Origin: Eledone cirrhosa
Taxonomy: Eukaryota
Reading direction: 5' to 3'
Assembly (NCBI GenBank): GCA_964016885.1
Contig: OZ024742.1
Location: 23,002,001-23,066,000 of the forward strand
Length of the DNA stretch: 64,000 nt
In this document: piece after piece, positions 11,205 to 43,583 of the stretch
How positions within the stretch are numbered: position 1 is the first letter of the stretch
Layout: each line of letters opens with the position of its first letter
Notes under the pieces: generated by a model
The model's database searches: none
The model's input: only the letters and a program-made list of their open reading frames with translations
Told to the model about the DNA's origin: nothing
Translations under genes and position numbers: made by a program

Positions 11205-11700
11205 AGAGCGGTGGATTGGCAGTATCGGTAGAGGGTCGGACACCATGCTTAGCAACATAGAGTTACGGCCCTTTACGGTCTGAGTTCAAATCCGGCCGAG
11301 GTTAACTTTACCTTTCATTCTTACGGGGTCGATGAAATAAAGTACCAGTCACATACTGAGTCGATTTAATCGACTTCCCCTCCCCCCAAATTACTGGCCT
11401 TGTGCCTATATAAGAAACCATTATTATTAGTGGGGGTGGTGAATTGGCAGTATCAGCAGTGGATCGGACGGTATTCTTAGTAGCATAGAGTTATTGCCCT
11501 TTACGGTCTGGTTTCAAATCCGGCCGAGGTTAACTTTGCCTTTCATCCTTACGGGGTCGATAAAATAAAGCACCAGTAACGTACTGGTGCTTTAATCAAC
11601 TTTCCCCTCCTCCAAATTATTGGCCTTCTACCTATACTAGAAATCATTAATATCAATACAAATTGTTGGCCTTATGCCTAAATCAGAAAGCATCATTATC
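11205..11700 (+). mobile_element. Two tandem tRNA-derived SINEs with a Deu/Nin-type core and (ATT)n tails, plus an extra 3'-tail copy
   Basis: A-box-like TGGCAGTATCGG, B-box GAGTTCAAATCC and core GCCTTTCATCCTTACGGGGTCGATAAAATAAAGTACCAG. The 3' end is GGCCTTGTGCCTA..AGAAACCATTATT, and the copies are preceded and separated by (ATT)n. Confidence 0.9.
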
Positions 11701-11702
11701 AA

Positions 11703-12034
11703 TCTAAACTCTAATAAAGTAAGTAATTTTCAAATATCAACACTTCCGGTTAGCAATCGCTTAAATAAACATTCCTATATTTCCGTCACTAATTTTCTCC
11801 TAATGCAGTTTATATATAATATCGTCTTTTTTTAATGTACGTATCATGGATTACTTTACTGATTACATAAGACAGTGTAACACAATCTTCGTTCAATGTC
11901 TGTGTGTATTGTCAGTTACGATTTTATTTGATGTATCATATCTACATGTATATATACCTGCGTATAATATCAATATTCACACTACACATGCTAGCAGAAA
12001 ACCACCAGAGAGGTGGTTTTTCTGCTAGTACTAG
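11703..12034 (+). mobile_element. Possible non-autonomous Helitron
   Basis: A|TCTAAACTCTAATAAAG 5' end, a 3' hairpin ACCACC-AGAGA-GGTGGT (extendable to about 16 bp) and then CTAG|T. Single copy in the window. Confidence 0.4.
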
Positions 12035-12238
12035 TTACTTAAGAAACAAATAGTTAATTATAAAAATTATTATTTGGAGACCGCTCTCTCTTGGTCACCA
12101 ATCTTTAACATCTATTTTATATAATTACCTGTTTTCACCTATTCTAATTTCCGTTACTAATCTAATATTTTAAACCTATTTCGAGATTTTTCCTGTACTT
12201 TTATTCTCTGATATTTTTCTATATATCCTCCTAATTAA

Positions 12239-12372
12239 TTGTTTCTACTTTAGGCACAATGCCAGCAATTACCCACTGCATTACTGGTACTACATTTTAT
12301 CGACCCCGTAAGGATGAAAGGCAAATTGAACCTCGGCGGGATTTGAACTCAGATCGCAAAGGGACGTAACTA
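12239..12372 (-). mobile_element. Deu/Nin-core SINE, 5'-truncated, short internal-deletion form
   Basis: Reverse complement of the 11205 family core and tail. Confidence 0.85.
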
Positions 12373-12732
12373 TATATATATATATATATATATATCCTCC
12401 TAATTAATGCCTTTTTTTTCTTTACCTCTCACATGTTGCTGTCTATCATATCTCTATATATGTTTTTGGCAACCATTCAGGGTGTGGCTTCTTATATGCC
12501 GTCTTACCTTCTTATATATATATATATATATATATATATATATATATATATATATATATATATATATATATATATATATATATATATATATATATATATA
12601 TAAAGGTTAAACAAGGTTCAATGAATAAATCAAAGAGTGAGTTTTACAATAGATTGGAAGCACTCAACAATGTTTAGTGGAGTAAATACACAATATATTA
12701 ATAAATGGAAACTATATTTATAAAACCATATT

Positions 12733-39800: not shown

Positions 39801-40254
39801 AATCCCAGCGTGCGTCTCAGATGCCATTCCAGTCCCCCACTAACAGTAAAGGGCGAGACGTACCCAGAAAGGTCTCCAGGCGCCTAAAGAAGTCCGGTCG
39901 TCCGGCCCCTGTAGGGGCGTAGACGGCCAGCAGTCTAAAGGCACCACCTTCGCTACTGCTCACATCCAAGACCACCAACTTACCATCCGGTTCTCGGAAG
40001 ATCTACTTTACCTCGAGATCCAGTCCTTTCCTAAACAGCACTGCCACCCCACCCCTCATTCCCGGTCTGCTCACAGATGCGAAGATCTGATAGTCGTCGA
40101 AAATGGGGGCTAGTGCGCGCGTGTCGGAAATTCTGGTCTCGCTGACGGCAATCACATCCATTTCCAGCGACCTGAGGTCGTTGAGCAGGCGACCCTGCTT
40201 CCAGGGTGACCCTAGGCCGCGAATATTTAAAGTTCCTACTCTTAATATGGCAAT
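36847..40254 (-). pseudogene. ORF2 (APE-RT-Zn finger) of copy 3, disrupted
   Basis: Begins IAILRVGTLNIRGLG (ATT at the position of the ATG in copies 1 and 2), then SYIDRIF, YSDH, KSPGLDG, FRPITLLN, DQSKAFDRV, YADD, and ends NGPTPSMHL*. Confidence 0.92.
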
Positions 40255-40283
40255 ATTGGTAAGCTAAGAGAGAGAGGGAAGGT

Positions 40284-42273
40284 TTACTTACCTTCCTGGG
40301 TCTTGTGAAGGTCGGGTTGTTCGACCTCCATGGCTGGTGGGGTTTCTTTTGGGAACCCCTTTAAAAGTCTTGATGTGGGTTTCACATTCGGAGTTCCCAC
40401 GTCTTGAGGAAAGCTCTCTCGAATTTCTTTGAAGGAATTGAGTGACATTCGGACAAGAAGCAAATCTTCTGGCACGTAAAATGTGCTCATTTCAAAAATC
40501 TCCCCCTCTGTTTGAATGTCCTCGCTTCGTGCTAAGAGAGCCATCAGTTTAACGTTGGCCCTTCTGACAAGCATGAAGTTTTAAACATTTTGTTGGTGTG
40601 GTTTTATTTGTTTCCGTTTTGGTGACTGTGGTGGTGATGGTTTTGGTGGTGTTTTTTCGGGTATGTCTGTGTTTGTTGTAGGTGTGGTGTCTGCAATTTC
40701 AGGTATTTCTGTGTTGATTTGTACTTGCGTTTGTTTAGGTTGTTTGCGTTTCGGGGATTGTGGAGGTGGTGTCGATGTTGCTGTTGGTGATGATGTTATT
40801 GGGGAAGTGTTTGCGTTAGTGGTGTCTGTATCTTTTGTTGTGTATGTTTTTGTGTTTTGTTGGGGCTTTTTTTTTGTGATTTTTCTCTGTTTTTTTGCAC
40901 TTTTGGGTTTTCCTTCATCTTCGCTGCTGGAAGACAAAGGGTCCGTGGCTGTGAGTGTCCCTGTGTCTGTGTGTGCGTTTATTGTTTTGTCTATGTGTAT
41001 AATGGGGGGGTAGGGGGAGTGGTAGATCGTTCCTCGTTTACCCCTTGGATTGGTTTTGGTGTTGGTGGTGATCCGGCTGTTTTTGATGTTGGTGTTCGTG
41101 TTTTTGTTGGTGTTGTTTTTAGTGGTGGTGGTGGTGCAGCTTTCCGTGCTGACACTGGCGTTGGCAACAAAGGAGGTTTGCGACCCCCTGCATTTTTGCG
41201 CTGAGGGCAGAAGGCTTGCTGATGCGTTGCTTCCCCGCAGACGAAGCAGCGTGGCCTTCTTCCGTCAATGATTAGTTGGATTGTTCTCCCGTCCTGCAGG
41301 AGGGCAAAATCCGGGATGTTGTTCATGTCCTCCGGTTTCATTTGGAGAAGAATCTCCAAATCCATTCCGGACCAGTCCTCTCTCTCTGTCCTTTTGATAT
41401 CCAGGAGGGTAGTGTCTGTCCCCTCCTCGATTACGCATCCCAGCAGCCACCATATGTTCATTCCTGGTGGGATGCTGGGAATGCGTACCTTTACTGTCCT
41501 TTTACCCATGTAGGACGGATCCATGATAATGCGTTCCGTTCTGCAGGGGGTCACCGAGTGCTTAATAGCGAGGGCCTCGGTTTTAAACAGTACCGAGATG
41601 GTACCGAACTGTTTGCCTCTTGCTTTATACTCTATGATACTTCCGATGTACTCCAAAGCAGCCTCGACCTCTGCTTGGCTGGCAAGTTCCACTTTTCGTG
41701 TCTGCACCTAAATGCATCGAAATAACACCGTCCTCCTTTGCATGGCCGCTATTGCCTCGTCCGGGATGGCCAGGATTGCCCAGGACTTCTCCCGTTTAAT
41801 TAACCTCCACGCTTGTGCCAACTGTTCTTCTTTATTGCTAATATTAATATCAATATTCAATAAGCGCTTTGTTTTTGCTGTTGCTGCAGCAAATGTGGTG
41901 CTTCTGATGCTCTTATTGTTGGTGTTGTCATTATTGCTGTTGTTATTGGTGTTGTTGTTGTTATTGTTTTGTTTGTTGATGCTGTTGCCACCGCCATCTG
42001 TGTTTACATTGAAGCTGTCGGTGTTATTGTCGTTATTGATCTGAGTTGTTGTTGTGGTGGTGGTGGTGTTGGCGGTGGTGGTGATGTCGTTTTCAGATGA
42101 TACTGCTGCTATCACAGAAGGTTGTGATGGTAGCTTTTTAGTTTTGCCTCACATTCAGTAGAGTGGATGACAGGCATGACTGTAGCCGTCGTAGTCGTGG
42201 TGAAATCTGCAGTGGCTGCCTTTAAACTTTTCACCTGAACGTTGTTTACCGTTTCAAGGTCGAACATTTCCAT
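40284..42273 (-). pseudogene. ORF1 of copy 3, disrupted
   Basis: ORF 40991-41707 contains RPRCFVCGEATHQQAFC (CCHC knuckle). The N-terminus is N/T-rich and the C-terminus P/T/K-rich. Confidence 0.85.
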
Positions 42274-42516
42274 AATTTTTTTTTGGTGGGGAAGCGATTT
42301 TTTTTGAAGTTTTTAAAAAATAAATCTGAATATTCGGGCTTAAAGCCCGAATATTGAGAGGTATCCCTCTCTTTAAATCAAGATGTGTACCTTAAGTTTC
42401 GTTAACGACAAGAAAATACAAAAAATGACACTTTAAAACAGCTTAAAGTTACGAACCTTTTCCCACGCAGATTTGTAGTCTTCACACATGTGCGGCCAAA
42501 TAATAATAATAATAAT

Positions 42517-42710
42517 AAGATAGTACTAATGGGAACTGCCCATATACTAAGGAAGATTCTGTGAATATAAATACATCACCGGTCTAAACACCTAAAGATA
42601 CATGTATGTGTAGTATGTGTTCTTTCTTGAACATGGCAGAGGTCACTGGTTGTGACTTGGGGATAGCTCGTGTGAACATAAATCAAGATAAATGAAATAA
42701 TAATAATAAT
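42517..42710 (+). mobile_element. 5'-truncated R4/Dong-like non-LTR element 3' end
   Basis: KIVLMGTAHILRKIL* matches the typical R4/Dong ORF C-terminus. The 3'UTR has GAGGTCACTGGTTGTGACTT and a (TAA)n tail, with (TAA)n also on the 5' side. Confidence 0.75.
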
Positions 42711-43583
42711 TGTTTCTACTTTAGGCACAAGGCCATCAATTTACCAGTGCATTAGTGGTACTTTATTTTATCGACCCCGTAAGGATGAAAGGCAAAGTCA
42801 ACATCAGCGGGATTTGAACTCAGATCGTAAAGGGACGTAACTGTGCTGGAAAGCATGGCGTCCGACCCTCTACCGATACTGCCAATCCACCGCCCGAAAT
42901 AATAATAATAATGATTTCTAGTATAGGCACAAGGCCAGTAATTTGGGGGTAGGGGAAAATCTATCAAATCGACCCCAGTACGTTACTGGTGCTTTATTTT
43001 ATCGACCCCGTAAGGATGAAAGGCAAAGTTGACCTCGGCGGGATTTGACCTCAGACCGTAAAGGGCCATAACTCTATGAGTCAAAGCATGACGTCCAACT
43101 CTCTACCAATACTGCCAATCCACTACCCTAATAATAATTGTTTCTACTGTTGGCACAAGGCCAGCAATTATCCCAGTGCATTACATTACTGGTACTTTAT
43201 TTTATCGACCTCGTAAGGATGAAAGGCAAAGTTAACCTCGGCGGGATTTGAACTAAGTATGACAAGGTCCGTAACTCTATGCGTCAAATCATGGTGGCCG
43301 ACCCTCTAGCGATACTGCCAATCCACCAGATAATAATAATAATAATAATAATATTTCAATTTCTAAATACCTTTCTACAAATAGACAGTAATAGACGTGT
43401 GTCATATATGTGGACATGGATGGGCAGTATAGGTAGAGGGTCGGACACCATGCTTTGCAGCAAAGAGTTGCGGCGCTTTATGGTCTGAGTTCAAATCCCG
43501 CCGAGGTTAACTTTGCCTTTCATCCTTACGGGGTCGATAAAATAAAGTACCATAATGCTTTGTGCCAAAAGTAGAAACAATTA
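42711..43583. mobile_element. Stack of four Deu/Nin-core SINEs: three head-to-tail on minus (42711-42897, 42913-43128, 43139-43328) and one on plus (43417-43583)
   Basis: Core and tail are repeated. Each minus copy is separated by (AAT)n and has the same polarity as the Tx1 copies. Confidence 0.92.

Follow-up and report, generated by a model that had tools for sequence, protein, structure and literature searches.

Short interspersed elements (SINEs) that carry the same 3′ tail as a long interspersed element (LINE) have been paired mostly with the CR1 and RTE clades, and the text of a review of 58 such pairs counts only three tails of the L1 clade, from plants and algae (PMC3747384). Closest in form to the pair described here are eel UnaL2 with its SINE and zebrafish ZfL2-1 and ZfL2-2, which, as presented in PMC4176376, likewise have a short common 3′ end, a fixed loop on an exchangeable stem, and a short terminal repeat without poly(A). 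We analysed a window of 64,000 nt from the genome of Eledone cirrhosa (contig OZ024742.1, positions 23002001-23066000; genome ~3.0 Gb, 2,996 Mb), which holds copies of a SINE and three Tx1-like LINEs, and followed both elements through the genome. The two are best read as a stringent SINE/LINE pair, of a known kind in its shared tail and with an unusual partner clade. At a probability of roughly 70%, the SINE is copied by the protein of the second LINE open reading frame (ORF2) through recognition of a shared hairpin with a CUUGU loop, and we are confident that the Tx1-like LINE group as such is the driver of the SINE.

Relative to UnaL2 and ZfL2, the partner belongs to the L1/Tx1 group rather than to L2/CR1, the hairpin has 3-4 bp, the LINE is target-specific, and recognition is predicted. 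Tails shared within the L1 clade are described for ZmSINE2/3 with LINE1-1_ZM in maize and sorghum and for Chlamydomonas SINEX-3_CR with L1-1_CR, whereas here the host is an animal, the LINE is of the Tx1 branch, the end is (ATT)n instead of poly(A), and the loop is a different one (PMC3747384). A Tx1-clade driver has also been proposed for the crocodilian SINEU, with Tx1-Mar, in which the SINE again shows a shared but weaker target preference and ages that overlap (PMC4494074). SINEU differs in its small nuclear RNA heads, poly(A) tails and Mariner target, and its driver was proposed from shared targets, the account in that paper giving no LINE that resembles the 3′ half of SINEU-1; here the link is the shared tail (PMC4494074). 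The same source describes Kibi at (TC)n, Koshi at (TTC)n and crocodilian Tx1 elements at (TTCC)n or (TTTC)n, which resemble the present LINE as two-ORF elements with an apurinic/apyrimidinic (AP) endonuclease that occupy a microsatellite with fixed polarity and form tandem stacks; the present LINE differs in its (ATT)n target and mollusc host, and no SINE partner is named there for the others (PMC4494074). The partners given for bivalve SINEs are CR1, CR1-Zenon, L2 and Nimb (PMC11481361, PMC4758252, PMC4824008).

The first-pass annotation of the window, made from its letters alone, had noted a common 3′ end in the SINE (42913-42936, with similar ends at 11396-11429, 16423, 43139 and 50548) and in two of the LINEs (36569-36594 and 24511-24534), and we located all of these tails. 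The observation is confirmed and extends genome-wide: SINE and LINE share a 3′ terminal sequence beyond chance. Scored against the five commonest SINE tails, the ends of the four LINE tail types reach 30.4 (family C), 26.2 (B2), 25.2 (B) and 18.2 (A), and those of the window copies reach 25.2 (copy 3) and 18.2 (copies 1 and 2). The mean over 4,391 ATTAT-anchored non-SINE sites is 4.2 (standard deviation 4.6), and eight non-Tx1 ends (two RTE, two CR1-like, two Dong/R4-like and two other, Penelope-like included) score 2.0-9.4, so that none of the sampled LINE ends, Dong and RTE among them, matches the SINE better than the Tx1-like families do. Of 2,000 dinucleotide shuffles, the score was reached by none for family C, by one for copy 3, by seven for copy 1 and by 26 for copy 2. 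In an end-anchored alignment without gaps, family C agrees with the SINE tails at 17-19 of 26 letters. Family C is absent from the window, and the best-matching partner is this family rather than the window copies chosen at first. The companion remark that the LINE families share little else in their 3′ untranslated regions (3′UTRs) is mostly borne out. Between families, identity is 51-64% outside the last 27 nt (shuffled, 47%) and 75-86% inside (shuffled, ~40%); for A and B the values are 54% (shuffled, 47 ± 2%) and 75% (shuffled, 40%), but six of the conserved letters are AATAAA, which the SINE lacks.

Several individual copies touch on the tail. One full SINE (L232:1250-1570, plus strand; a single copy) ends in 13 letters of LINE family B/B2, AATAAA included, possibly through template switching or conversion between a SINE and a LINE tail. 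A search for chimeras of a SINE body with a LINE tail gave 14 matches, in none of which the LINE hairpin directly adjoins a SINE body. Older-looking LINE tails (L241, L242, L245, L246, L247) have letters before the hairpin that are closer to the long form of the SINE, and large inverted repeats (L125:8400-10000, L146, L104:5600-6600) carry in their arms a SINE-tail-like stretch before ATTAT.

In the RNA, the tails of the SINE and of all four LINE families are predicted to fold into a hairpin of 3-4 bp with an invariant CUUGU loop, which lies 16 nt from the ATT run in A, C and the SINE and 17 nt from it in B and B2. Among copies with an intact loop, family C being selected by its exact tail pattern, the loop-closing pair is C-G in every family and in the SINE. 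At the second position the LINEs have C-G (A 69/70, B/B2 33/33, C 35/35) and the SINE has G-C (69/80); the third pair is A-U in family A (70/70) and G-C in B/B2, C and the SINE, and the fourth is variable and frequently unpaired in family C and the SINE. An alternative alignment replaces the pair swap with two gaps, and the hairpin survives either way. Between the hairpin and the end, the LINEs carry AATAAA and the SINE has variable letters without it. The predicted fold includes the hairpin in five of five LINE tails and two of five SINE tails. Thus the 3′ stem-loop appears to be conserved by virtue of paired changes between families, folding energy alone being weak evidence, and the feature recognised is more likely the loop of a hairpin set at constant spacing from the 3′ terminus than the linear motif first suggested. 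Six LINE insertions (L235, L236, L238, L239, L240, L252) are cut to the last ~26 nt, from the hairpin base, and lie between ATT runs; the search pattern favoured 5/6 of them, so enrichment cannot be read from their number.

The LINEs target (ATT)n. Among the 40 best-scoring A and B copies, (ATT)3+ lies within the last 21 nt of 25 5′ flanks, against a background of 0.24%, and the 15 flanks without it include unresolved junctions; in the older family C it was found in three of eight resolved copies. This preference lies above the level of >20% of flanks applied in PMC4494074. For the SINE, target-site duplications flank 36/72 full copies (mismatched pairings, 3-13/68), and all 22 confident ones, whose first base directly follows the SINE and which span at least 12 bp (12-21 bp), begin with ATTAT (20) or GTTAT (2). 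Just 9/22 of these sites overlap (ATT)3+, which rules out strict microsatellite targeting by the SINE. Among 96 SINE 5′ flanks, ATTAT occurs in 49 (background 5.6%) and (ATT)3+ in 15 (background 0.24%), an enrichment of ~65-fold in which part of the ATT sites are tails of earlier SINEs. The SINE thus shares the polarity and core motif of the LINE with a looser, five-base RTTAT preference. Of the first-pass claims that both elements sit in (AAT)n and that microsatellite targeting passes from LINE to SINE, the LINE part and the enrichment stand, whereas most SINE copies genome-wide lie outside long (ATT)n and strict targeting fails.

Duplication length is unreadable in most LINE copies because both flanks are pure ATT. 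Among ten very short LINE insertions, three (L239, L243, L270) have 13-18 bp repeats of non-ATT content, of the SINE-like kind, and seven have repeats that are pure ATT or ≤12 bp. Neighbouring LINE tails less than 15 kb apart are on the same strand in 34/35 cases and distant pairs in 25/53 (first 100 listed places). Among the places listed, a SINE lies within 150 nt of 22/100 LINE 3′ ends, on the same strand in 21. Downstream of 24/100 LINE 3′ ends, Dong/R4-like elements of two families lie tail to tail with the Tx1-like LINE, in opposite direction and in shared microsatellites. Such elements might themselves mobilise the SINE, since they are abundant (coding matches, ~33 kb per Mb), follow Tx1-like tails at the rate just given and have left one fragment in the window's pile-up. 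However, their sense strand ends in (AAT)n, which is the reverse polarity, the ends score only 3.4 and 4.6, and none of the 96 SINE 5′ flanks contains (AAT)3+. On polarity and tail mismatch we reject them as partner, an explanation that is largely refuted and has next to no probability.

The ages of the two elements overlap, as the proposed partnership would predict. Short-form SINEs, the main form, diverge by 7.0% from their majority sequence (62 copies) and long-form SINEs by 18.6% (29 copies); pairwise divergence is 13.4% among the short SINEs (62 copies) and 13.2% among family C 3′UTRs (26 copies), and young short SINEs are 96-99% alike. A stop-free frame of at least 1145 aa is present in 37 of the 66 LINE copies listed (counted by eye), family A having many. 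The short form and family C were therefore active at the same time, as were young SINE copies and family A, a statement that does not extend to the long form.

Several observations weigh against recognition of the hairpin by the Tx1-like enzyme. The shared stretch measures only ~25 nt and is A/T-rich at its end, and the youngest LINE family, A, is the weakest match, as the copy 2 shuffles illustrate. The within-family pair counts are inflated because an intact loop was required and family C rows were picked by pattern, and in folding energy the SINE tails do not surpass their shuffles (z -0.74 to +0.69), 3/5 of them adopting another fold and two LINE tails also lying at z ~0. Most SINE sites are not microsatellites, and SINE tails mostly have 0-2 ATT units (109/129), against 3-22 in 30 young LINE copies. 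No LINE 3′ end is dated to the older long SINE form, the random sample spans only 1 Mb of 2,996 Mb, and one CR1-like family (L099/L126) also has a sense-strand (ATT)n end.

In a relaxed form of mobilisation, the Tx1-like enzyme would need only AUU repeats that pair with the target, and the hairpin would be left over from capture or have a role in RNA stability or 3′ processing. The predicted hairpin is weak, part of the conservation between LINEs is AATAAA, the stem of the youngest family differs, and mammalian members of the L1/Tx1 group are described as relaxed (PMC3747384). That the youngest family matches least fits recognition of the loop and fits the relaxed model as well. Yet both SINE forms preserve the loop and its spacing even though the spacer letters vary, and a change on one side of the stem is matched on the other. 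Under a relaxed enzyme such conservation would have no cause, which argues against this form of mobilisation, and we judge it unlikely.

An unsampled or extinct LINE family with a closer tail could also be the real partner, given the size of the sample, several decayed reverse transcriptase (RT) segments without a readable 3′ end, and a long SINE form older than any dated Tx1 3′ end. The top scorers among the 4,391 ATTAT-anchored sites are nevertheless scraps of SINE tail, Tx1 ends and two inverted-repeat elements, and a sequence common to the region upstream of 51 truncated SINEs was found in only 13 pairs involving seven copies, apparently SINE dimers. A genome-wide search for the SINE's exact stem with AATAAA recovered no LINE, its three matches all being SINE copies. 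We regard this explanation as improbable. Slightly less weight falls on mobilisation by the CR1-like LINE that ends in (ATT)n, with the Tx1 match old or accidental. Published partners of Deu/Nin SINEs are indeed mostly CR1 or L2 (PMC3747384 Table 1; PMC11481361), but this CR1-like end scores 9.4, ~1 standard deviation above background, its (ATT)3+ ends number only two in 1 Mb, and the copy examined is decayed, so that we consider it very improbable. Other candidates were set aside on their ends. The second and third CR1-like families end in other repeats (the CR1 end in L157 judged by eye, unscored), and the repeat at RTE ends is (GAT)n or (AT)n (the latter likewise by eye, unscored). Two of the RTE-like families (L135:6805-9999, L096:4267-7071) have a PHD finger inside the RT region and end in (GAT)n; another (L078, L112) ends at (AT)n.

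Returning to the hairpin-reading Tx1-like enzyme, we infer mobilisation and hairpin recognition from a shared 3′ end, a loop at fixed spacing, stems that differ yet pair, duplications at RTTAT, same-strand stacking and overlapping divergence. It is established that elements of this class insert by target-primed reverse transcription. A template switch is the probable way in which the SINE ancestor would have acquired the terminal ~25 nt from a Tx1 RNA. The ORF2 protein would bind the hairpin, nick DNA at RTTAT, and prime on the AUU repeats of the RNA, with specificity for the loop and only generic demands on the stem, as in zebrafish L2 elements, for which loop-specific, stem-generic binding is reported (PMC4176376). 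If the strand nicked by the endonuclease is the one with the AATAAT reading, and its released 3′ end anneals to (AUU)n, polarity would be fixed and each new tail would be the next target; a nick in the second strand 12-21 bp away would yield the duplication. Since every insertion would add an ATT run of like orientation, head-to-tail stacks would build up. The AATAAA of the LINE may be kept for 3′ processing by the polymerase II pathway, and the SINE may lack it because a polymerase III SINE does not need such processing. On a wider claim our judgement is evenly balanced: that an animal L1/Tx1-group enzyme recognises its RNA by a loop of five bases instead of poly(A), starts synthesis on (AUU)n and has brought the dominant SINE of this genome up to several hundred thousand copies. 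Taken as a whole, the first-pass interpretation is partly supported: the Tx1-like LINEs stand as the best candidate driver of the SINE on tail match, conserved hairpin with compensating stem changes, insertion polarity, overlapping ages and the lack of a better sampled LINE.

The grounds for placing the LINE in the Tx1 group are its domains, its targeting and a single named homologue, and we accordingly call it Tx1-like. PF03372, PF00078 and PF13966 were found in the frames of the window LINEs and in a natural intact copy (L130), whose ORF1 has one zinc knuckle (CX2CX4HX4C) and no Pfam match. The RT is 41-44% identical to P0094, a protein named 'transposon TX1'; its nearest named relative is from Argonauta hians (74%), and the best solved structural relative of the LINE is human L1 ORF2p. 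In an RT tree whose rows include one named Tx1 and no L1-proper, the LINE groups with P0094 apart from RTE, R4 and CR1 (93/97). Some LINE copies are rearranged. A chimeric LINE (L201; C28:97194940-97199946, minus strand; one copy seen) has a stop-free frame of 1162 aa and is 98-100% family A through the RT, followed by a C-terminus and 3′UTR of B/B2 type. Two family A copies (L194, L195) switch their 5′ half (5′ of ~3519) at one point near the ORF2 start, an exchange of 5′ modules, and one family B copy (L173) has (AAT)n on its 5′ side, possibly an inversion.

The SINE is a non-coding, high-copy element of ~190-220 bp with target-site duplications. A-like and B-like polymerase III boxes are visible in its putatively tRNA-derived head, its body may resemble the Deu/Nin type, ARAGORN and Rfam returned no match over the window, and no tRNA donor was identified. 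In 100 evenly spaced 10 kb stretches, which make up the 1 Mb sample, the SINE has 189 matches, covers 2.9% of bases and occurs in 65/100 loci, whereas the next most widespread repeat is common to 26 other loci, and the SINE thus deserves the description 'dominant' given to it at first. Tx1-like sequence amounts to 47.8 kb over 17 loci, including 2.6 kb of the reference copy. Exact tail patterns occur genome-wide at 167,014 places for the SINE and 11,341 for the LINE, with none for the reversed controls. In contigs from public runs, both elements occur in several contigs (X4, X8, X14), X15 has one contig for each, and the LINE tail was seen only in X4.

If this reading is correct, the Tx1 clade would here gain its first SINE partner with a shared tail; the LINE would be an animal L1-group element seemingly using stringent hairpin recognition, and the pair a natural test case for shifts between stringent and relaxed RNA recognition within the L1 group. 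It would also show target preference passing from LINE to SINE in weakened form and explain the head-to-tail stacks around (ATT)n, and the recognition rule is easy to test because the hairpin is tiny and has natural stem variants. In octopus genomes tRNA-Deu SINEs and L1-Tx1 LINEs are likewise both abundant, with 13 recently active L1-Tx1 families reported for O. vulgaris, but the main text of these two papers leaves them unlinked, and the present SINE may belong to their tRNA-Deu class (PMC8967140, PMC13282606). In the text available, octopus repeat papers name tRNA-Deu SINEs as well as L1-Tx1, RTE or Dong LINEs but propose no pairs among them (PMC8967140, PMC13282606, PMC9115989, PMC12988792), and our reading supplies a probable driver for the SINE expansion characteristic of these genomes, which was left unassigned there. 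On Tx1 SINE partners, the text of PMC3531059, PMC5786205, PMC3899998 and PMC11121367 adds nothing. An octopus SINE-Tx1 pairing is absent from the open full-text literature searched; subscription papers, Repbase, Dfam and SINEBase lay outside that scope, and a record may exist.

In the window itself, the three Tx1-like LINEs lie head to tail on the minus strand with ATT runs at their joins, and none of the three has an intact ORF2. In copy 1, ORF2 (24764-28172) encodes AP endonuclease, RT and zf-RVT domains split over three frames, and the hairpin is followed by AATAAA, GAAATC and (ATT)3-4. Copy 2 has stops and frame changes in ORF2 and the same AACC/CUUGU/GGUU hairpin. Copy 3 is 72-74% identical to the family A copies over ORF2, and its ORF1 and 5′ end are unlike theirs. 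The single polarity first ascribed to this pile-up holds for the three LINEs and for three SINEs, but not for the Dong/R4-like fragment and one SINE that also lie 5′ of copy 3; the fragment has (AAT)n at its sense-strand end.

Table 1. Positions of LINE and SINE features within the 64,000-nt window
Feature	Position	Strand	Remarks
Two long-form SINEs	11203..11650	+	Head to tail (11203-11429, 11430-11650)
Three tandem SINE copies	16058..16641	+	
Tx1-like LINE copy 1	24511..30530	-	Family A, full length
Predicted 3′ hairpin of copy 1	24523..24535	-	AACC stem, CUUGU loop, GGUU stem
(ATT)10 run	30531..30560	-	Copy 2 tail and copy 1 5′ flank
Tx1-like LINE copy 2	30561..36547	-	Family A; 92.5% identity to copy 1
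(ATT)7 run	36548..36568	-	Separates copy 3 and copy 2
Tx1-like LINE copy 3	36569..42497	-	Family B, full length, ORF2 broken
Predicted 3′ hairpin of copy 3	36582..36594	-	GGCC stem, CUUGU loop, GGCU stem, then AATAAAT GAAATC
Dong/R4-like LINE 3′ fragment	42517..42710	+	81.5% to end of element in L123
SINE, short form	42705..42890	-	
SINE, long form	42907..43123	-	
Predicted 3′ hairpin of this long-form SINE	42926-42936	-	GGC/CUUGU/GCC; GAAATC at 42913-42918
SINE, short form	43133..43326	-	Predicted hairpin UGGC/CUUGU/GCCA
SINE, opposite orientation	43417..43583	+	Internal deletion
SINE, long form	50543..50740	-	

The window contains 17 SINE matches in total. At 11613-11703, the final 46 nt of the SINE are duplicated in tandem.

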